From positions 48,371 through 112,370 of IMG/VR virus record IMGVR_UViG_3300042448_000816: a stretch of DNA of 64,000 nucleotides; one strand, given 5' to 3'. Below, one piece after another: positions 4,969-64,000 of the stretch. The position numbers were made by a program, and so were the translations under genes. The stretch comes from a virus. How positions within the stretch are numbered: the stretch's first letter is position 1; each line of letters begins with the position of its first letter. The notes under the pieces are model-generated. The model made no database searches, was not told the DNA's origin, and saw only the letters and a program-made list of their open reading frames with translations.

Positions 4969-7900
4969 TTACACCTCACTCAAATATAAACTCATGCTTG
5001 GTCCAGAGCTATCTTTTTTATAATCTATGCTATAAACAACAAATCTTTTTTCTGGATCAAAAGTTACTTCATCAGAACTATCAGAATAGTCTATGGACAC
5101 GATATCTCCTAGCTGTATTGTTGGGTTAGCAAAAATGCTAACGCCTACGGACCTTCTCGGTTTCATAATTTTTGATATTAACCATTTCATTAAGTTGTTA
5201 GCTGCATCAGCACTTTGTATATATATAGAGTCCAACAAAAACTGATTTCTTCCATATGTTATTCTACTAGATTTAATGTCATTATACAATTCTTTTTGTG
5301 TTCCTGGAGACAGGATGGTTAGGTCTTCTTTTAGTTGTGGATTTGAAAAGTTTGAAGTTTTTTCAAAATAATTATCAACAGTTAAATCATAGCGAGAATC
5401 TTGAGTAAATGTTATTCCTTGAATTCTTAAGTAGTTTCCAACTGTTTCATCTAAGAATAAGAATGTGTCTGTAGCGTTAAAGATTAAGAACTCTGCACCA
5501 TATGCTCCAGCAAAGAATCCAGAAACCGTGTATCCACGAAGCTTGTTAAATGTTGGAGATATTGATGCGTATAAGGCTGGATAAGCCTTGTCATACTTTA
5601 CATTAAAGTATGCCATCTCCCTAAAGATACTGCCGAACTCTTCATAAAACATGTTATATTTTGGTGGCTGAGATGGGTCTATTCCAGAAAGGTATGTAGG
5701 TTGAACAATACCATTGATCGAATATTTCCTAAATGCTTCATTAGATGATATGTCAGATTTGTTTGTAAAAATTTCATTTGCAATTGGGCCCAGAGAAACG
5801 TCAGAGTTTTGACTATAGTTGTTAGTTAAAGCATAAACATTTTCAAACATGCAGTGAGACGCTCCACGAACAAACAGTGCCACATTGTTTACATTATTTA
5901 GGGGGAGTGGGTCTGGATCGTCAACTACCGCTATCTGAGTATCATTTAGGTATAAGAAAAATCTTCTAGAATTTCCTACTGGTTGATACTCTATAGCTAG
6001 ATCATAAACAGTTGTCAGCTCTTCAGCCACTACCCTTGACTGGCCAGCAAAGTTTCCATCATCAACAATAATAGAGGATAGACCGCTCCAAAGCTTAACT
6101 GGTATTCCGTCTTCATCTCTTGTCAAAACCCATTTTGAGTTTTCTGATCCTGGCGTTGTTAGCGTATAATATCCATTTTGAGAAGGATCTTTTTGTCCAA
6201 TTAAAGAAACTCTTTGACCAACTTGAACAATGGATGGTGCTATTCCTCCAGACGGCAGGATAAGTTCTCCATCCTGAGAAGCTGTTATAGTAGTAGGCGT
6301 TGCGGCACCAGGCAAGTTATTGTCTAGGGTCAGGCTTGTTGCTGTTGGCGTTGGGTCTTTTGTCGGATCTCTTAGAGGAGTCTGAATGTCATAGCTTGTG
6401 TTTTTTAATATTTTATAGAAAAATACATTAGCCACTCCGTCTAAGTCAAAGGTAGAAGGAAGCAGCGATATGTTTTCGGTCTGATTGATTCCAGTGGTGT
6501 CTTCAACTGTAAATCCAAATCCAGATATGGTTACTGCTGCTGATGTTGCCCCAGTTACGGTCCAGGTTCCGAGTGCATATGTAGGCAGATTTACAGGACT
6601 AGAGCTAGCTGGCTTTCCAGAATCAAGAATAATTTTAGATCCGACTGGGTAGCTTTTACTTGCTGAGCTAACGTACACAACAGCAGAGTTAGAGCTAGTG
6701 GCGTTAAATCGTGTAACATTTTTTCTAACTCTAGAGCTATTTAGCTTATACTTATCTATATTTTTTTCTGATAAAGCTGCTATCTCAAAGTAGTATCCGT
6801 TGTTATTTTCTGGATTTAAAAGTGTCGCAATTCCACCGCTTCCACCAGAAATAGTTTTATTTTCATCTGGGGTTGTGGTTTCCACATTAAAGTATGTTGT
6901 TGCTCCTGAAGCATTCTGAATTGACTTATCATTGTTTTCAATTTTTCCGATAATTCTCATTCTTGTTCCAAAATGTTTAAAAGAATTATTTAATGGTTTA
7001 TTTACGTAAGAAATAAAATCTATTGGAGAATCTTCTGAAGAAAACGATGGTCCATTAAATACCAGGGCTGATGCCTGAACAGTTTCTGATGTAGAGGAAA
7101 GCTGATTCTTGCTAGATAGCTCTTCGTTGTGAGAAAAAGATAGATAGTTTTTTATTACGCTAGACCTTGAAGACTGAGTAGCTAAAGACTTTCCTACTCC
7201 AGCTGATCCTGTGCTAATGTCCCCAGTAAATGCAAAATTTCCAAACAAGTAGTTTGACTTCATTTTACATCCATAAACATTGTCGTTGCTTGTCCACTCA
7301 GGGCTTAGTCCTGCAACGTGAGGCACGATCTTTGTACCAAATTGTTCTCTGCCGTGTTTAGCTACCTCACCGTTGGACATTCTGGTTATGCCATTAAAAG
7401 TTTCGTAGTTTGGCTCTGCATAAATTCTTACACGTCCAGTTGGATAGATTTTTCCATTAAATGATAGCTTAGAGAAATAGTCTTCGTATTCTTGTGGACT
7501 TGTTATCCAAACGTTTCCTCCAGTAAAAGTAGATCCTGTTACGCTTGATGGCAAAACCGAAACGTTATACTCTACTGCATCATACCTTATAACTTCTCCA
7601 GCAGAATAAAAATATCCATTGTATCTTCCGATAAACAAAACTCCATCTCCAAAGTCAATAATGTTATTGACAATTTCATGATTTACGACCCTAGGTATTT
7701 GATCATTCAAATCTGAGTTCAATGGAATAGCTGCTAATGCGTATTTGTTTCCAGTTGCTGTTTGTCCATTTGTAGGCTTTATATTTTCTGTTCCTGAAAC
7801 TTCCCAAAGCAATGCTGGCTTGTATATCCAGGAAATATTTTTATCTGCAACAAAGGCTTGCTTTAGAGACCCCATAGATTTCTGAATGTACCTTGCTATA

Positions 7901-9891
7901 TAACTTATCTTGCCGTCGTTAAAAACATTATTGTCCTCTGAGGCTATATCTATAATATTTTCTTTATCTGGAATGTTTGTATCTTTGTTAGAGCCGAGCA
8001 ACACTATATCCGTAGCTCTTTCCTGTTCCGTTGGCAAAGAGTAGTTTCGACTCATCATAACAAAATTATTATATTCATCAAAGTACATTGCTGTTTGTGT
8101 AGCTATAGCAAGATTGTTTAACACTTCTGCAATAGTCTCTTCTGGGGAAACAAAGAAATACGGAATTATTGGATCACTTTCTCCATCCACTCTTTTGAAG
8201 GAATAGTTGCTAAAACCTATGCTATCAAAAATTGTTGCAAGTGCATAAGACAACGAAACATTTGGAATTAAAAGTTCTGGGGCCAGCTGCGACTCAAAGT
8301 AAAAGAAGAGGTCTCTTAGTGATAATCTAAGCTCTCTTGTTTTAAGATTAGTCTGAGGGAAAGATTCTGAGTATAAAGTTTTTATTGGTACATAAAAACT
8401 TTTCTTAAATCTGTTATTGTTGTTATCTAAGATTTCAACGTCTGAAATTATCTCATAAAACTTTATTTGAATATTTTTATTTATGTATTTTGATACAATA
8501 CTTCCCTTTCCAGTTTTTGGGTTCCAAACGTTGTTTGGGTTAAAGGACTGGTCATAATCGAATAAGGATAAGTCTCCAGTAGATGCTAGTAATTGACCTA
8601 CTGGTAAACCACTTACCCCTAGGTCCGAAGCATTTTTAGTTACTGAGTATGAGATTGTTTTTTCTGTTAGGTCAACGGCAAGTCTTGGGGAAAGTTCTAT
8701 TAGATCAAAGGTTGACCCAAACTTATTCATTGTATCTACGACAAGCCTAATTCCAGAAATAAAAATAAATTCTTCATATCCTAGTACTCCAGCTTGTGCT
8801 GTGCTATATTTTTTAGGAGTCGTAGTGTCAGTTACGAAGTTTGTTAGCTGGTCTACATTTTCATCTACCACATACCACCCATACTCTGGGGTGAATTCAA
8901 GATACCGATCGTTTTCCCAAATATAGTATTTTCCAATATCATTTGAGCTTCTTTTAACCAGGTAAGCCTGGCCGTTTTCATTATTTGGTGGAAGAATAGT
9001 TGTAGAAGCTACAACTCCATTGCTTATAAAGTTTACCCTGAATCTTTCTGGCACAATAAGCCCGTAGCCAACTTCTAGATATCCATCTGTACCGATTATT
9101 GGCTGGCCATTACTTCGAATAGAATTATTATCAAAAGATATTGCGTCTACCCAAACATTATTTTTTAGATACTGAACCTTCCATTTTACTGGAGTTGTTT
9201 TATTCTGTTCTCCAAATAGTGGGTCTGTAAAGAATCCAGCTGGTCCAGAGAATGGCCCTAGGTCAACACTGCCTACCCCAGTTTGCATTTTTACAACAAC
9301 CCTGTTTACTGGAATTTCTTCCTTGTACACAACATAAGGAGCAACGTCTTCTATGTTATGGTTGTTATTAATAGTATTATTTGCAATTCCATACTCTTTT
9401 CCATCTTCAGTTCTATAAGAGGTCCAGTATTTAAAGTTATCGTTTTTGTCTGGCATGTAGTATCTTGGTCTATTAAACATGTCAACATTGCTATGATGAA
9501 GATATTTTCCAGTAATTCCATACCTAAGTTTATTAATTCCAGATCTAGGTCTAAACTTACCAAAGCAATCTTCCAGGGAAAACAAAAGCTTTTCTTTTTC
9601 TTTTTTGGGTTTAAAGATAACTGGTGTTTGCCCGTCCTCTTTAAATCCTCCATCAACTAGTATGTCTGCATCGGTTGCCCCAGTGTAAAAATTTCCTACG
9701 TCTTTAGGGTCGTAGATGTTTGGAATTGATCCGTATTTTTGAGTAACTCCTAGTAGAGGTCGGTAGCGATAGTTTCCAATATCAGCGATGTTTTCAAAAA
9801 AATTCATGTTCCATTCAGCAATGACTGCAGCACGAGATTTGATTGTTGAAGATGTTTTTAAATGATCGCCTAACTCTTTGCTGTCAAACAT
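4969..9891 (-). CDS. Large tail-tip/baseplate hub-like protein
   Basis: 1640 aa; second gene after TMP; C-terminal ANPTIQLGDIVSI motif typical of central tail hub proteins. Confidence 0.65.
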   Translation of the reverse strand: MFDSKELGDHLKTSSTIKSRAAVIAEWNMNFFENIADIGNYRYRPLLGVTQKYGSIPNIYDPKDVGNFYTGATDADILVDGGFKEDGQTPVIFKPKKEKEKLLFSLEDCFGKFRPRSGINKLRYGITGKYLHHSNVDMFNRPRYYMPDKNDNFKYWTSYRTEDGKEYGIANNTINNNHNIEDVAPYVVYKEEIPVNRVVVKMQTGVGSVDLGPFSGPAGFFTDPLFGEQNKTTPVKWKVQYLKNNVWVDAISFDNNSIRSNGQPIIGTDGYLEVGYGLIVPERFRVNFISNGVVASTTILPPNNENGQAYLVKRSSNDIGKYYIWENDRYLEFTPEYGWYVVDENVDQLTNFVTDTTTPKKYSTAQAGVLGYEEFIFISGIRLVVDTMNKFGSTFDLIELSPRLAVDLTEKTISYSVTKNASDLGVSGLPVGQLLASTGDLSLFDYDQSFNPNNVWNPKTGKGSIVSKYINKNIQIKFYEIISDVEILDNNNNRFKKSFYVPIKTLYSESFPQTNLKTRELRLSLRDLFFYFESQLAPELLIPNVSLSYALATIFDSIGFSNYSFKRVDGESDPIIPYFFVSPEETIAEVLNNLAIATQTAMYFDEYNNFVMMSRNYSLPTEQERATDIVLLGSNKDTNIPDKENIIDIASEDNNVFNDGKISYIARYIQKSMGSLKQAFVADKNISWIYKPALLWEVSGTENIKPTNGQTATGNKYALAAIPLNSDLNDQIPRVVNHEIVNNIIDFGDGVLFIGRYNGYFYSAGEVIRYDAVEYNVSVLPSSVTGSTFTGGNVWITSPQEYEDYFSKLSFNGKIYPTGRVRIYAEPNYETFNGITRMSNGEVAKHGREQFGTKIVPHVAGLSPEWTSNDNVYGCKMKSNYLFGNFAFTGDISTGSAGVGKSLATQSSRSSVIKNYLSFSHNEELSSKNQLSSTSETVQASALVFNGPSFSSEDSPIDFISYVNKPLNNSFKHFGTRMRIIGKIENNDKSIQNASGATTYFNVETTTPDENKTISGGSGGIATLLNPENNNGYYFEIAALSEKNIDKYKLNSSRVRKNVTRFNATSSNSAVVYVSSASKSYPVGSKIILDSGKPASSSPVNLPTYALGTWTVTGATSAAVTISGFGFTVEDTTGINQTENISLLPSTFDLDGVANVFFYKILKNTSYDIQTPLRDPTKDPTPTATSLTLDNNLPGAATPTTITASQDGELILPSGGIAPSIVQVGQRVSLIGQKDPSQNGYYTLTTPGSENSKWVLTRDEDGIPVKLWSGLSSIIVDDGNFAGQSRVVAEELTTVYDLAIEYQPVGNSRRFFLYLNDTQIAVVDDPDPLPLNNVNNVALFVRGASHCMFENVYALTNNYSQNSDVSLGPIANEIFTNKSDISSNEAFRKYSINGIVQPTYLSGIDPSQPPKYNMFYEEFGSIFREMAYFNVKYDKAYPALYASISPTFNKLRGYTVSGFFAGAYGAEFLIFNATDTFLFLDETVGNYLRIQGITFTQDSRYDLTVDNYFEKTSNFSNPQLKEDLTILSPGTQKELYNDIKSSRITYGRNQFLLDSIYIQSADAANNLMKWLISKIMKPRRSVGVSIFANPTIQLGDIVSIDYSDSSDEVTFDPEKRFVVYSIDYKKDSSGPSMSLYLSEV

Positions 9892-25571: not shown

Positions 25572-25993
25572 TACTTACCGAAATCTCTCGCAACTTCTTC
25601 TGGGGTTGCAATTCTGATGTGGTCACGTGTTGCCCACTTATCTGCAGCCTGCTTTGTCACAATGTTGTAGCCCTTAGAAACCTGACCAACTCCAGACCAG
25701 TTAACATTTCTTGTAGAGTAAATTGCAACTGTGTCTTTTGATTCGGATACTTTTGGCTTGTCTGTTTCTTTCTTTTCTGCACTAGCTGATCCAATCACAT
25801 TTTCTTCATTAGAAGTAACGGACAGATTTGGACTAGTAGCCATCTTGTCTGAAGAAATTACATCGTTACGCTCTTCTTGAGCTTTTACAGCTTCTTTATA
25901 TTTTTCTATAAGTGGATGAGGAATTAAAGCTTCGCCATCTTCTAGTTTGGCAAGTGGTACATCTTTAAATTTTGAATTATTATTTTCGGACAT
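25571..25993 (-). CDS. Hypothetical protein following the capsid gene
   Basis: SD AAGGAG; C-terminal IRIATPEEVA. Confidence 0.7.
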   Translation of the reverse strand: MSENNNSKFKDVPLAKLEDGEALIPHPLIEKYKEAVKAQEERNDVISSDKMATSPNLSVTSNEENVIGSASAEKKETDKPKVSESKDTVAIYSTRNVNWSGVGQVSKGYNIVTKQAADKWATRDHIRIATPEEVARDFGK

Positions 25994-26033
25994 GACTATC
26001 TCCTTCTTTACCTTTAATTATAACAGATATTAG

Positions 26034-39601: not shown

Positions 39602-40489
39602 CTAAAGTTCTATGTTATCAAGCTTGGCTTTGATTAGCTCTGCTTGTTTTTCTGAGTTTAAAACAGCAAGGTATGTGTGATTTTTTAAAAGTGCCATATA
39701 CTCATAGTGATCGTGGATGCCATAAATAATAGTTTTAGTTTCATCATCAGATATTGTATGGCCAACCATTACTTCTGTTAATATCTCAATAACTTTTTGA
39801 TTTTCTTGCATAAATATTAAACTTGTTAGCCCAGAACCACTTAACGCTACCAAAGTAGAGCAAGAATTAAAAAGCTCAAACTGTTCTTTAAAAGTAGTTA
39901 TATCTTCTGGATATACTATCTGGAATCCTTTTTCTATAAAGTAATTTTCTAAGATCTCTTCATCATCAACTCTTAAGTCAGGACTTGAATAGCTTTTTCT
40001 ACTAATATATATTTTTTTGTTTGGTGTTTCTGTAACTAGATTGTACTTACTTAAAAGATAATTATATAAAAGTGGAACGCCAGTCTCAAGGTCTGCACCA
40101 TTTATTGGAATAAAGTTTTTTGCATTTAGGTATGTAAATTCAGAATTGTCTACTTGTGTGTAGCTGATATTACGTTCTTGTAAAAGCTCTACCAGTAAAT
40201 TGTCAAAATTTTCTTCTCCAGGCCTTACATTGATATTGCACAAAACAAAGTGAAGGCTTTCATGGCTTACTTCTTCTAGCACCATAAGTGCTGGCATCAT
40301 AAGGTTTATAAGGAAATGGTGATAGTTTGACTTAGCGTCCATAATTACATATGTTTTATTATCTTCTAAAAAACTTATAAAGCTAAAACCTTCTGGAGAA
40401 TAGCCTGGCTCAAAATCACAAAATGATCCTAAAGTGTGTAGGTTTATATTGTGAATATCGTTTACTTTTTCTAATCTATCGCAAATCAT
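39602..40489 (-). CDS. Glycosyltransferase family 61-like
   Basis: NYHHFL, KIYISR, EQFELF, SGSGLTSLIFM. Confidence 0.8.
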   Translation of the reverse strand: MICDRLEKVNDIHNINLHTLGSFCDFEPGYSPEGFSFISFLEDNKTYVIMDAKSNYHHFLINLMMPALMVLEEVSHESLHFVLCNINVRPGEENFDNLLVELLQERNISYTQVDNSEFTYLNAKNFIPINGADLETGVPLLYNYLLSKYNLVTETPNKKIYISRKSYSSPDLRVDDEEILENYFIEKGFQIVYPEDITTFKEQFELFNSCSTLVALSGSGLTSLIFMQENQKVIEILTEVMVGHTISDDETKTIIYGIHDHYEYMALLKNHTYLAVLNSEKQAELIKAKLDNIEL

Positions 40490-40573
40490 CGTGTTTTCGC
40501 TAGCTTACCTTCCTGCAAAAATAAAAGGCTATCGTGCCACTTCTAGTTTAATTATACCAGTATTTTCTTGCTT

Positions 40574-51948: not shown

Positions 51949-52013
51949 CTCGATTAATTATAACAGATTATAGTGATAATTATATAAGTAAACTTTGCGA
52001 ATACCGCTTTTTG

Positions 52014-52038
52014 TGGGGGATTTTGAAAGGATCCCCCA
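52014..52038 (-). terminator. Probable terminator hairpin
   Basis: tgggggat...atccccca just downstream of 52052..53995. Confidence 0.5.
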
Positions 52039-52051
52039 AACCTTTAATATA

Positions 52052-60118: not shown

Positions 60119-60362
60119 AATATTGATTATATCACAGAAAACGTTAAAAAGACTAATACTCAAGTTGGTGGGTATGAGAGACAAACCTGAGTATTAGCCT
60201 TATAGATTATAACATAACAAACGTTATAATATCGTTATAAAGTATTTGCACTTAAAAATAAAAAGTGTGGTATATTGTTATAATTAGGTTTTAAGATATA
60301 TATAATATAAAGTATATAAGATATTAAATATATAGTATAGTTTTATATATTATATATAATAA

Positions 60363-62290: not shown

Positions 62291-62524
62291 CTATTTCTCA
62301 TTTCTTTTTTTGTAATCTTCATTCATCTTAGCAATCATAGCGTCCCAACGAGTGTTAGCTTCATCGGTGATTTGCTTATCGGTAAAGTAGTGTTGGCTAG
62401 CTAGAGCCTTTTCATAACGCCATTCTTCACGGCTAACGGCAGAGCCATCGTCACTACTTTCGGCAGTGTAGCAATTCTTTTTTAGGCTAACTAATGCCTC
62501 GAACATTTCTTCTAATTTTTTCAT
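62291..62524 (-). CDS. Hypothetical protein, first gene of the leftward small-gene operon
   Basis: SD GAAAGGA; preceded by the TGTCGG-N10-TAGGCT promoter. Confidence 0.75.
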   Translation of the reverse strand: MKKLEEMFEALVSLKKNCYTAESSDDGSAVSREEWRYEKALASQHYFTDKQITDEANTRWDAMIAKMNEDYKKRNEK

Positions 62525-62548: not shown

Positions 62549-62570
62549 AGCCTATCACTAGCTACCGACA
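62549..62570 (-). promoter_or_regulatory. PafBC/RecA-NDp-like promoter TGTCGG-N10-TAGGCT
   Basis: Exact match to TGTCGG-N10-TA-N3-T. Confidence 0.7.
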
Positions 62571-62673
62571 ATTGTGACCCTTTTTCAACTGATTTTCATA
62601 CAAACTTTTACCCTCTTTTTTGTAGGGTATCTACAACTGTTACCAAATTGTTATAATTATTTTTAGTTTTATC

Positions 62674-62699
62674 GGCGTGTCGACTTGACACGACACGCC
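62674..62699. repeat. Inverted repeat GGCGTGTCG-N8-CGACACGCC (two WhiA-like GACAC boxes)
   Basis: Perfect 9-bp arms. Confidence 0.75.
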
Positions 62700-62714
62700 C
62701 GACGGGGGCGGCCC

Positions 62715-62735
62715 TGTGTATAACTATGTGGATAA
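62715..62735 (-). promoter_or_regulatory. Two tandem DnaA boxes (TTATACACA, TTATCCACA on the minus strand)
   Basis: tgtgtataa at 62715-23 and tgtggataa at 62727-35. Confidence 0.65.
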
Positions 62736-62792
62736 CCTTGTTATGAAGATGTTATAAAATCCTCCTAAAATTACGGCGTGTCGATTTGATAA

Positions 62793-62814
62793 TGTCGTAG
62801 GTCTATGTTAGGTT
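62793..62814 (+). promoter_or_regulatory. PafBC/RecA-NDp-like promoter TGTCGT-N10-TAGGTT (1 mismatch)
   Basis: Also TTGATA-N17-TAGGTT, with GTGTC upstream. Confidence 0.6.
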
Positions 62815-62839
62815 ATAAGTAATTAGAAAGGATAAGTAA

Positions 62840-63022
62840 ATGAACGAAATAGTAATTGAAGGCTTCAAGTGTGTTGAGTGTGAGGACACTTACTACCACA
62901 TGCCAAGTTTTGGCTACTGTGATAACACTCTTGAGTGTGCGATTTCTGATGGTGATAGCGTCAAGCCTCACTCTTGGATTGCTAATGAGGGTGATGTTAG
63001 ATACCTTGTTAGGAGTATCTAA
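62840..63022 (+). CDS. Small Cys-motif protein
   Basis: SD GAAAGGA; CVEC...C...C. Confidence 0.7.
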   Translation: MNEIVIEGFKCVECEDTYYHMPSFGYCDNTLECAISDGDSVKPHSWIANEGDVRYLVRSI

Positions 63023-63141
63023 TGAACATCGTGGTAGAGGTTTTGGGTGTTGAGATCCCTGCCCTTGTAGTAGTGTGGGGATTTGGTATGTTGTTCTTGG
63101 TTGCTTTGTTTGTAGCAATTCACCTTGACACTAAAGACTAG
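63022..63141 (+). CDS. 39-aa membrane peptide (MNIVVEVLGVEIPALVVVWGFGMLFLVALFVAIHLDTKD)
   Basis: SD AGGAG; TAATG coupling; hydrophobic. Confidence 0.6.
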   Translation: MNIVVEVLGVEIPALVVVWGFGMLFLVALFVAIHLDTKD

Positions 63142-63273
63142 GCGTGTTGATTTGACATCCCCTAAAAAAATGGGGCGGCCCCCGTTTCCGATTTGTCAAG
63201 TTAGACACGCTTATGAAGTATACAAAAAATCCCCCGAAAGTTTGTAGCAAAACCTGTTGCTTTTGTCTACCAA

Positions 63274-63295
63274 TGTCAGTGGTGTGTGATAGTGT
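63274..63295 (+). promoter_or_regulatory. PafBC/RecA-NDp-like promoter TGTCAG-N10-TAGTGT
   Basis: Matches TGTCRgtg-N8-TAnnnT. Confidence 0.7.
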
Positions 63296-63320
63296 AATAG
63301 TAGATAGAAAGGAGTCAGAA

Positions 63321-63542
63321 ATGACAATAAACAAAATAGAAAACGGTTCCGTAGTAGAGCTTACCCTTAGCCACAAGTTGGACGGTGGTTGCCCTTGTGG
63401 TGCTACAGTTGCGATGTCCTACAGCAAGGACGGCTCTGGTTATGCCAGATACAACTACAGCAAGGTCTACACTCACAAAAGTGTAAACTTTACTGACAGC
63501 TTTTTTGCTGAGTTCGCTAAAAGATTTCCAGGCGAAATCTAA
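63321..63542 (+). CDS. Hypothetical 73-aa protein (MTINKIENGS...)
   Basis: SD GAAAGGAG before ATG 63321; the track start at 63213 is over-extended. Confidence 0.7.
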   Translation: MTINKIENGSVVELTLSHKLDGGCPCGATVAMSYSKDGSGYARYNYSKVYTHKSVNFTDSFFAEFAKRFPGEI

Positions 63543-63657
63543 AATAGTGGGGGTGTCGATTTGACATTCCCACAAAAATGCGGCGGCCCCCAAACCTATG
63601 CTTGTCAAGTATCAATTACGTTGAGTCTAAAAAATCCCCCAAAAAGTATTTGACAAA

Positions 63658-63679
63658 TGTCGGTCGTCTGTGATAAGTT
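63658..63679 (+). promoter_or_regulatory. PafBC/RecA-NDp-like promoter TGTCGG-N10-TAAGTT
   Basis: Exact match; TTGACA 18 nt upstream of the -10. Confidence 0.7.
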
Positions 63680-63703
63680 TTTGGTATAACGAAAGGATAC
63701 TAA

Positions 63704-63784
63704 ATGGAAGAGTTTTGGGAAGAGCGTTGCTTCGTTTGCCAATCGGCAGACGAGTGCCCTTGCGACGAGGGGACGGGATACTAA
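63704..63784 (+). CDS. 26-aa Cys microprotein (MEEFWEERCFVCQSADECPCDEGTGY)
   Basis: SD GAAAGGA; CxxC...CxC. Confidence 0.6.
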   Translation: MEEFWEERCFVCQSADECPCDEGTGY

Positions 63785-63861
63785 TGGAGGGGTTCGAGAC
63801 TGGCTACTGGACTCCAGAGTCATTAGACGAGTTTGCTTCCGACCTTCTTGAGGAGGCTTGA
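63784..63861 (+). CDS. 25-aa acidic microprotein (MEGFETGYWTPESLDEFASDLLEEA)
   Basis: TAATG coupling; ends at the next cassette junction. Confidence 0.5.
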   Translation: MEGFETGYWTPESLDEFASDLLEEA

Positions 63862-63889
63862 CAAGTCCCCTTCGGGGGGGGCGGCCCCC

Positions 63890-63898
63890 TGTGGATAA
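63890..63898 (-). promoter_or_regulatory. DnaA box TTATCCACA
   Basis: tgtggataa directly after the GGCGGCC core. Confidence 0.6.
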
Positions 63899-63955
63899 CC
63901 TGTGCAGATCTTTGTTATGAAGTTGTTATGAAACCCCCCGAAAATCTGCCACAAA

Positions 63956-63977
63956 TGTCGGTAGGGTGTGATAGGGT
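63956..63977 (+). promoter_or_regulatory. PafBC/RecA-NDp-like promoter TGTCGG-N10-TAGGGT
   Basis: Exact match, followed by SD GAAAGGA at the window end. Confidence 0.7.
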
Positions 63978-64000
63978 TTTAGTAATCAGATGAAAGGAAA

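Follow-up and report, generated by a model that had tools for sequence, protein, structure and literature searches.

A 112-kb lake phage of actinobacteria, and many of its relatives, carry in front of a block of small genes predicted promoters that are built like the host promoters read by the DNA-damage activator PafBC, and the phage may therefore use this host sensor as a switch. Seventeen copies of the element aaTGTCGGTrGG-N6-TAnnnT lie in one ~11-kb block of small genes and none is found elsewhere in the genome. At least 68 related IMG/VR contigs carry 5-18 co-oriented copies each. The reading that we favour, with moderate confidence and on sequence evidence alone, is that these are PafBC-type sigma-adaptation promoters read by the PafBC of the host. 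Literature searches for PafBC together with phage, mycobacteriophage or RecA-NDp, which did not cover subscription-only papers, found no description of phage promoters of this type.

Promoter boxes in the small-gene module

The window, a stretch of 64,000 nucleotides, is the last 64 kb of a circularly assembled virus record of 112,370 bp (IMGVR_UViG_3300042448_000816) whose two ends overlap by 218 bp. A sequence-only reading had proposed that five promoters in this window match the PafBC-dependent (RecA-NDp) promoter, that each is followed within about 10-15 nt by a GAAAGGA Shine-Dalgarno sequence, and had not seen the element at the late promoters. This observation is confirmed, and the set of sites is larger than had been described. 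All five sites are present, with GAAAGGA following the -10 hexamer after 11, 11, 11, 11 and 14 nt and a start codon following 6-7 nt after that. The features of the region are as follows.

62549-62570, minus strand: box promoter (TGTCGG; TGTCGGTAGC-N6-TAGGCT, with a TGn extended -10), the single divergent copy, predicted to drive the minus-strand small genes starting at 62524
62291-62524, minus strand: 77-aa ORF of no known family, with GAAAGGA 11 nt after the -10 hexamer
62683-62708, no strand assigned: perfect 9-bp inverted repeat (GGCGTGTCG...CGACACGCC) followed by a GGGGGCGGCCC hairpin (z -2.4), lying between the two divergent promoters, probably a terminator or insulator
62793-62814, plus strand: box promoter (TGTCGT; TGTCGTAGGT-N6-TAGGTT), with TTGATA at the -35 position, 18 nt from the -10
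62840-63022, plus strand: 60-aa Cys-rich ORF whose end overlaps the start codon of the next ORF
63022-63141, plus strand: 39-aa hydrophobic ORF, a likely membrane microprotein
63139-63213, plus strand: long inverted repeat enclosing a GGGGCGGCCCC hairpin (-31.1 kcal/mol, z -4.2, 0 of 200 shuffles fold as well), the junction or terminator element between gene cassettes
63274-63295, plus strand: box promoter (TGTCAG; TGTCAGTGGT-N6-TAGTGT, with TGn)
63321-63542, plus strand: 73-aa ORF starting at the ATG that the Shine-Dalgarno sequence supports
63658-63679, plus strand: box promoter (TGTCGG; TGTCGGTCGT-N6-TAAGTT, with TGn), with TTGACA 18 nt upstream of the -10
63704-63861, plus strand: two overlapping micro-ORFs of 26 aa (with CxxC motifs) and 25 aa, read directly from the sequence
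63956-63977, plus strand: box promoter (TGTCGG; TGTCGGTAGG-N6-TAGGGT, with TGn), the same copy as genome position 175-196 because the record ends overlap; its gene starts just beyond the window end

In the window alone the relaxed pattern TGTCRK-N10-TANNNT gives 6 matches against 2.5 expected, and 4 of 100 shuffles reach 6, which is weak by count, although five of the six lie within 1.45 kb. The first 20 kb of the record, by contrast, hold 15 more matches against 0.76 expected, and 0 of 200 shuffles reach 15. In all, the genome has 17 good copies, 16 on one strand and one divergent, in a single block that continues across the junction of the record ends, whereas the reversed-pattern control gives 0. 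TGTCGG occurs in 14 of the sites, TGTCGT in 2 and TGTCAG in 1. The earlier remark that the other promoters lack the element also holds, as the rest of the genome uses box-less TG(T/G)TATAAT promoters. The block is a run of small genes with their own predicted promoters and hairpin junctions, each promoter preceding one or a few genes. Some flanking junction sequences are repeated, yet several copies abut stop codons with no repeated flank at all.

The spacing of the element is rigid. Of 623 boxes in related contigs, defined without reference to a -10, 93.6% have TAnnnT at exactly N10, 0% at N9 and 0.3% at N11. In 68 related contigs 689 sites keep the box and the -10 while the flanks and the N6 spacer vary. 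All multi-copy contigs found belong to one phage lineage, and this conservation is therefore not independent evidence from unrelated phages. Eleven of the 17 sites have no -35 element, six have TTGACA or TTGATA 17-18 nt from the -10, and in relatives roughly 10% of sites have a TTGA-type hexamer at that position. Twelve of the 17 have a TGn extended -10.

Correspondence with actinobacterial PafBC-type boxes

The published PafBC consensus is tGTCgg(N10)tA(N3)T, with the box at -23 to -28 and an invariant GTC triplet read by PafB R46/R50 (PMC8635444), and all 17 phage sites fit it in register. The sequence match is closer than the sequence-only reading had stated, as the positions after the core agree as well. 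The phage has TGTCGG-TRG-G, and in five high-GC Actinomycetota genomes TGTCGG-N10-TANNNT occurs 124 times against 18 for the reversed control, with most copies continuing TGG. The extended pattern TGTCGGTRGG-N6-TANNNT occurs 139 times in 74 of 401 Actinomycetota genomes against 15 for the control; TGTCGGTGG is the commonest genomic form. The phage clade has a second box class, TGTCAG-ACC(C), at 110 of 766 sites. This class, TGTCAGACCC, resembles the TGTC..ACCCC type found upstream of recA in PafC-bearing genomes, for example TGTCAGACCCC and TGTCGTACCCC.

In bacterial genomes the box tracks PafC. A TGTC-N12-TANNNT box lies within 300 nt upstream of recA in 21 of 26 genomes with a PF19187 match and in 3 of 3 small low-GC genomes with a match, but in 0 of 26 small genomes with no match or only a sub-threshold match. 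The recA boxes of the three small low-GC PafC-bearing genomes examined first read TGTCGCAG or TGTCGGAT, not the TGTCGGTGG of the phage. A search of five small low-GC genomes for a genome-wide excess of TGTCGS-N10-TANNNT found none over the reversed control, and a looser pattern gave 46 matches against 26, which is too weak to define a regulon. The genes downstream of four Georgenia boxes are not obviously repair genes.

The phage itself is an actinophage. It encodes WhiB (E 4e-13), and its nearest cultured relatives are Streptomyces and Rhodococcus phages, its DnaE being 56% and its portal 47% identical to Streptomyces phages of the Stanwilliamsviridae. It encodes no WYL domain and no sigma-70 region 2, so that a host factor would be needed, and ten module proteins searched against Pfam and PHROG returned no function. 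One module gene has its ATG 6 nt after the -10, consistent with a leaderless start. The cultured relatives, whose Streptomyces and Rhodococcus hosts bear PafBC, do not use the box and have -35/-10 promoters instead.

Attempts to identify the host failed by every route tried. A megablast search with 14 kb of the phage against cultured phages found no match, two conserved module proteins likewise have no match in cultured phages, and a blastn search with phage positions 19-39 kb against the 401 Actinomycetota genomes found only tRNA-level hits. A scan of species genomes with NrdJ returned hits of 80-86% that are phage contigs mis-binned into MAGs of unrelated phyla, whereas true bacterial hits reach only 55-57%, the nearest being Micrococcales. 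An acI-specific 16S probe sequence matched 0 of 72 small genomes, which is uninformative. The only lead to the host is that the DNA occurs in lake-water metagenomes.

PafBC as the candidate reader

The five sites belong to a set of 17 predicted promoters in a module that spans the ends of the assembled genome of a virulent, siphovirus-like lake actinophage. Each is bipartite; a SigA-type -10 hexamer (TAnnnT), usually preceded by TGn, lies exactly 10 nt downstream of a 9-12-bp element (aaTGTCGGTrGG), which places the element at about -23 to -28 as inferred from the -10. In the mechanism we propose, the host PafB-PafC heterodimer would be switched on by single-stranded DNA, the PafB HTH would bind the GTC-containing box and the PafC HTH would contact SigA domain 4, which is sigma adaptation. 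Host RNA polymerase would then start 6-8 nt after the -10. In this way the module would be tied to the LexA-independent ssDNA/damage signal of the host, which the infection itself may generate. Control by LexA is unlikely, as no actinobacterial SOS box lies near the promoters. The weak, G-rich -10 hexamers in the window (TAGGGT, TAGGCT, TAGTGT) in a 39% GC genome, where the other promoters of the phage are perfect TGnTATAAT, fit dependence on an activator.

What the analysis establishes is the sites, their number, the rigid spacing, their conservation across a broad phage clade, their sequence identity with genomic actinobacterial boxes and the absence of a phage WYL protein or sigma factor. 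That PafBC binds and reads these boxes, that the host has PafBC, that transcription starts where the -10 predicts and responds to ssDNA or DNA damage, when the module is expressed and what triggers it are all inferred, in the absence of transcription-start, expression or binding data. The sequence-only interpretation, that the phage wires accessory or early genes to the host LexA-independent damage response, possibly triggered by its own DNA, is therefore supported only in part. The host is not a mycobacterium, and calling the genes early is an inference from their layout. In the sample of 401 Actinomycetota genomes, PF19187 scores above its cut-off in 273, including low-GC ones, but 128 lack such a match, and most of the small low-GC genomes checked lack both PafC and the recA box. 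If the host belongs to one of these lineages, PafBC cannot be the reader.

Could the same architecture be read by a factor other than PafBC? A phage-encoded adaptor without a WYL domain, possibly delivered with the virion, or another host DNA-binding protein sitting between the DNA and SigA domain 4 remains possible although less likely; T4 MotA/AsiA works this way at MotA boxes. In favour of such a reader, the lack of the box in cultured relatives on PafBC-bearing hosts makes it look like an invention of this lineage, the module encodes dozens of proteins with no known family, many small low-GC actinobacterial genomes lack PafC, and PMC8635444 itself proposes that other factors may use sigma adaptation. 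Yet it would be a coincidence for an unrelated reader to need the same core, the same N10 spacing and both extended sub-types (TGG and ACCC) seen in actinobacterial genomic boxes. No HTH, WYL or sigma family was detected in the module proteins tested, and the three most conserved module proteins do not look like DNA binders by eye.

It is also conceivable, though we consider it somewhat less likely still, that the promoters run on their extended -10 alone and that the box is an operator for a phage or host repressor that shuts the module off, or a decoy that soaks up PafBC and weakens the damage and anti-phage response of the host. Twelve sites have TGn and those without it have near-consensus -10 hexamers, and together with the -35-like hexamers of six sites this means that they may fire without any activator. 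Moreover, the box overlaps the core promoter, where repressors act, 17 copies per genome could titrate a low-copy factor, and a 2025 paper cited in PMC12848934 links PafBC to phage resistance. However, an operator or decoy would not need spacing to the -10 that is exact to the base in 93.6% of boxes, the sequence between box and -10 varies freely, so that the spacing is not simply inherited through duplication, and the weak -10 hexamers in the window argue for a need for activation. That the sites are chance matches or a by-product of duplicated intergenic cassettes, as the modest count in the window and the repeated junctions might suggest, is in practice refuted by the counts in the first 20 kb and in the related contigs, and by the copies with no repeated flank.

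PafBC is known as the main DNA-damage activator of actinobacteria and, more recently, as a factor in phage resistance. If phages carry dozens of PafBC-type promoters, the damage sensor is also a route of attack; infection could be timed by the ssDNA that the phage itself makes, or PafBC could be drawn away from host defence genes. A bolder reading, which remains tentative and rather unlikely on present evidence, is that a whole clade of virulent freshwater actinophages has replaced the -35 element of its takeover-module promoters with the PafBC box of the host, so that the ssDNA sensor meant to trigger DNA repair would be tripped by incoming or replicating phage DNA and serve as the master switch of the phage. 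This would be the first case of a phage promoter class built for a host WYL-domain activator and for sigma adaptation. Regardless, the finding gives a natural set of about 700 sequence variants of the box with fixed geometry, useful for defining what PafB reads, and it shows a promoter-class switch, from a -35 element to a -26 box, between related phage lineages. It may also help assign hosts to abundant uncultured lake phages, because their hosts should encode pafBC if this reading is correct. Because the box is conserved across the phylum, the core claim is open to study in model actinobacteria.

Comparison with known promoter systems

The closest system is that of the PafBC-dependent (RecA-NDp) promoters of mycobacteria and other Actinobacteria (Gamulin 2004; Muller 2018; PMC8635444). 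The phage sites share with them the bipartite tGTCgg-N10-tA-N3-T layout, a box at about -26 as inferred from the -10, a SigA-type -10 and the extended TGG and ACCC positions of genomic boxes, and 11 of the 17 have no -35 element. They differ in that they sit on a virulent phage with a 39% GC genome, at 17 per genome, in front of small genes of unknown function rather than DNA-repair genes. In addition, an A-rich run precedes the box, most copies add a TGn extended -10, a third add a -35-like hexamer, and their dependence on PafBC is inferred from sequence.

T4 middle promoters (MotA box at -30 with AsiA; sigma appropriation) are likewise a phage promoter class in which a box upstream of a normal -10 replaces the -35 and an adaptor bridges the DNA and sigma domain 4, as is proposed for the phage sites here. 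T4, however, brings its own adaptor proteins and remodels sigma, whereas this phage encodes no recognisable adaptor and its box matches that of a host activator. The stoperators of mycobacteriophage L5 (cluster A), 13-bp asymmetric repressor sites, also occur as many co-oriented copies of a short asymmetric site in one phage genome, and the L5 site contains TGTC and GGTGG. Stoperators are spread through the genome without fixed spacing to a -10 and act by repression, while here the spacing to the -10 is fixed and the sites are confined to one module.

The terminal-repeat small-gene modules of Streptomyces phages (Stanwilliamsviridae, e.g. Bmoc) belong to related phages (DnaE 53-56%, portal 47%). 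Both have a ~10-kb run of small genes, each preceded by a GC-rich hairpin with a GGCCGCCCC-type element and its own promoter; as to the terminal repeat, the present record shows only the 218-bp end overlap. The Bmoc promoters read cTTGta-N17-TGnTAGACT, a normal -35/-10 pair, and TGTCGG-N10-TAnnnT occurs at most once in each of three such genomes.

Distribution and layout of the box promoters

We find that the five sites described by the sequence-only reading are real and lie where it placed them, each followed after 11-14 nt by GAAAGGA and then by a start codon:
62549-62570, minus strand, box promoter
62793, plus strand, box promoter
63274, plus strand, box promoter
63658, plus strand, box promoter
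63956, plus strand, box promoter

Within the window alone the relaxed pattern is only mildly over-represented, with 6 matches against 2.5 expected and 4 of 100 shuffles reaching 6. However, the window is the last 64 kb of a 112,370-bp IMG/VR virus record whose ends overlap by 218 bp (genome 1-218 = 112153-112370; window 63783-64000), indicating that the assembly is circular, although IMG/VR labels it linear, and the element continues across this junction. The first 20 kb of the record hold 15 matches against 0.76 expected, and 0 of 200 shuffles reach 15. We count 17 good copies in all, confined to an ~11-kb block of small genes (genome 110.9 kb through the junction to 8.5 kb), of which sixteen are co-oriented with the genes and one is divergent at the left edge, whereas the reversed-pattern control gives zero. 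The module spans the junction of the record ends and may correspond to the ~10-kb terminal repeat of related Streptomyces phages.

The consensus in this genome is aaTGTCGGTrGG-N3-(TGn)-TAnnnT. Several copies abut the stop codon of the preceding gene and have no other upstream sequence in common, and the unit is therefore compact, consisting of the box plus the -10. Twelve of the 17 copies have a TGn extended -10, while the five without it have near-consensus -10 hexamers (TATAAT, TACAAT, TAAAAT), a trade-off typical of real promoters. Six of the 17 also have TTGACA or TTGATA 17-18 nt from the -10. The 130-aa ORF at genome 6940 has its ATG 6 nt after the TATAAT and no SD (genome 6912-6942); its mRNA is probably leaderless, a common arrangement in actinobacteria that fits an actinobacterial host. 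The module genes in the window (62840-63141 and 63704-63861) are microproteins of 25-77 aa, several with CxxC pairs and one a likely single-pass membrane peptide, and none has a known family. Between the gene cassettes lie junction elements (window 62683-62720, 63139-63213, 63547-63600 and 63860-63890), each an inverted repeat containing GTGTCGATTTGACA and a GGGGCGGCCCC-type hairpin, one of which folds at -31 kcal/mol (z -4.2); these may be terminators or binding sites.

The rest of the genome, almost all on the other strand, uses a different promoter type without a box. These are near-perfect extended -10 elements of the form TG(T/G)TATAAT(TA), mostly on the minus strand, for example at window 25900-26000, 40400-40500, 51950-52050 and 60180-60360. 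The genome therefore has two distinct promoter classes, and the remark of the sequence-only reading that the other promoters lack the element is correct.

The phage and its relatives

The phage has a GC content of 39%. The window encodes a portal, a prohead protease, an HK97-type capsid protein and a 3,458-aa tape-measure-sized ORF, whereas the rest of the genome encodes DnaE, DnaB, a primase, RecA, a class II ribonucleotide reductase, four tRNAs and a WhiB-family protein (PF02467, E 4e-13), the usual marker of actinophages. The tRNA genes (Thr-TGT, Asp-GTC, Gly-GCC, Asn-GTT; genome about 26.07-27.24 kb, positions 7074-8238 of the genome stretch L010) are 75-88% identical to tRNAs of many Actinomycetota and give no clue to the host. 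The nearest cultured phages are Streptomyces phages of the Stanwilliamsviridae (DnaE 53-56%, portal 47%), followed by large Rhodococcus phages. The DNA is present in lake-water metagenome runs from 17 studies. Contigs 80-86% identical to this phage's NrdJ (L133-L137, L144, L147, L148, L150) sit in public MAGs labelled Chitinophagaceae, Flavobacterium, Luteolibacter, Gammaproteobacteria, Beijerinckiaceae, Bifidobacterium and Acidimicrobiaceae, and look like phage contigs mis-binned into unrelated genomes. Searches of the phage found no WYL domain and no sigma-70 region 2. The module proteins have no assigned function, their only family hits being DUF7178 and DUF932.

An exact-pattern scan of IMG/VR returned at least 116 contigs, and 68 of the stretches retrieved hold 5-18 co-oriented boxes within 10-14 kb, at 36-43% GC. 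All 68 share module proteins with this phage, so that they represent one phage lineage and not independent families. The lineage is broad, however, as one member whose portal is only 47% identical, as distant as the Streptomyces phages, also has five co-oriented boxes. The logo of 689 sites reads AAA-TGTC-(A/G)-G-T-G-G-n3-T-G-n-TAtAAT. Boxes defined without reference to a -10 are followed by TAnnnT at exactly N10 in 93.6% of 623 cases, at N9 in 0% and at N11 in 0.3%. Two box classes occur, TGTCGG-TGG (317 of 766) and TGTCAG-ACC(C) (110 of 766).

PafBC-type boxes in actinobacterial genomes

To examine whether the phage-specific extensions are also found in bacterial genomes, we used as the centre a Georgenia genome reached through the NrdJ search. 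In five high-GC Actinomycetota genomes TGTCGG-N10-TANNNT occurs 124 times against 18 for the reversed control; in Georgenia it is 33 against 1, and of those 33, 21 have T at position 7 and 12 continue TGG. The full phage-type pattern TGTCGGTRGG-N6-TANNNT occurs 139 times in 74 of 401 sampled Actinomycetota genomes against 15 for the control; 6 of the 139 matches come from genomes flagged as unpublished (G227, G149, G083, G344 and G089 of the sample). Within 300 nt upstream of recA, a TGTC-N12-TANNNT box is present in 21 of 26 genomes that have the PafC HTH domain PF19187 (19 of 24 without the unpublished genomes G002 and G337), and in 3 of 3 small low-GC genomes that have it. Conversely, the box is present in 0 of 26 small genomes with no PF19187 match or only a sub-threshold one; 13 unpublished genomes are included in one of the tallies behind this count. 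Taken together, 24 of 29 genomes with PafC have the box, against 0 of 26 without. The recA boxes mostly read TGTC(A/G)(G/T/C)ACCCC, which resembles the second class of the phage clade. Both flavours of the phage box therefore have counterparts in actinobacterial genomes, and the box tracks PafC. A sizeable group of small (1.2-1.6 Mb) low-GC Actinomycetota appears to lack both, which suggests that the PafBC pathway was lost in streamlined lineages.

Proposed mechanism and relation to known promoters

In our view, the module promoters most likely are SigA promoters whose upstream contact is made by a factor bound at -26 rather than by sigma domain 4 at a -35. Given the sequence identity, the most economical candidate is the host's PafBC, which is active only when it binds single-stranded DNA (PMC8635444; PMC11804915). 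This would tie the module to ssDNA in the cell, which could come from processing of the entering DNA ends, from phage replication or recombination (the phage has its own RecA), or from pre-existing host damage. The sequence-only reading, in which the phage wires accessory or early genes to the host PafBC response, is partly supported: the sites, their numbers, their spacing and their counterparts in bacterial genomes are seen in the sequences, whereas binding by PafBC, transcription from these promoters, the source of the ssDNA and the timing of the module are inferred. That the module is early is inferred from its resemblance to the terminal-repeat small-gene modules of related phages. The box-less TGnTATAAT promoters elsewhere would be expected to be strong without any activator, and the module could therefore instead be a conditional set that is switched on later.

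A question remains, does the host encode PafBC? Every attempt to identify the host failed. Low GC is not itself a problem, as related Streptomyces phages are far below the GC content of their high-GC hosts (the Bmoc region is 54% GC), and low-GC Actinomycetota with PafC and with boxes such as TGTCAGTGG and TGTCAYACCC also exist. Yet many small low-GC genomes lack PafC and the recA box, and if the host is among them another reader is needed. An unrelated adaptor, phage-encoded or host-encoded, could use the same geometry, although we consider this unlikely. Relatives on PafBC-bearing hosts do not use the box. Most copies carry an extended -10 and could be active alone; it is conceivable, though somewhat less likely still, that the box is a repressor operator or a PafBC decoy on promoters that run on their extended -10. 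The base-exact spacing and the shared sub-types argue against the operator and decoy readings and against a reader unrelated to PafBC. Chance is very improbable.

The published in vivo consensus of PafBC promoters is tGTCgg(N10)tA(N3)T, with the box at -23 to -28, the GTC triplet read by PafB R46/R50 and no -35; PafBC is inserted between the DNA and SigA domain 4, which is called sigma adaptation (PMC8635444). The phage sites match the consensus in register. We found no paper describing phage promoters of the PafBC type, whereas a 2025 paper cited in PMC12848934 reportedly links PafBC to mycobacteriophage resistance. What would be new is the appearance of a known promoter class in a phage, in a new role and in unusual numbers. 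The cultured relatives do not have the box: TGTCGG-N10-TAnnnT occurs 0-1 times in each of three Streptomyces phage genomes, and three Rhodococcus phages show no excess of the looser TGTC-N12-TANNNT over the control. The equivalent small-gene region of Streptomyces phage Bmoc has the same cassette layout, including a GC-rich hairpin with a GGCCGCCCC-type element, and a GGCCGCCCCGGCC element similar to that of the lake phage junctions precedes its promoters (locus L170), indicating conservation across family-level divergence. The Bmoc promoters, however, read cTTGta-N17-TGnTAGACT, and the lake lineage therefore appears to have exchanged a -35 element for a -26 box.
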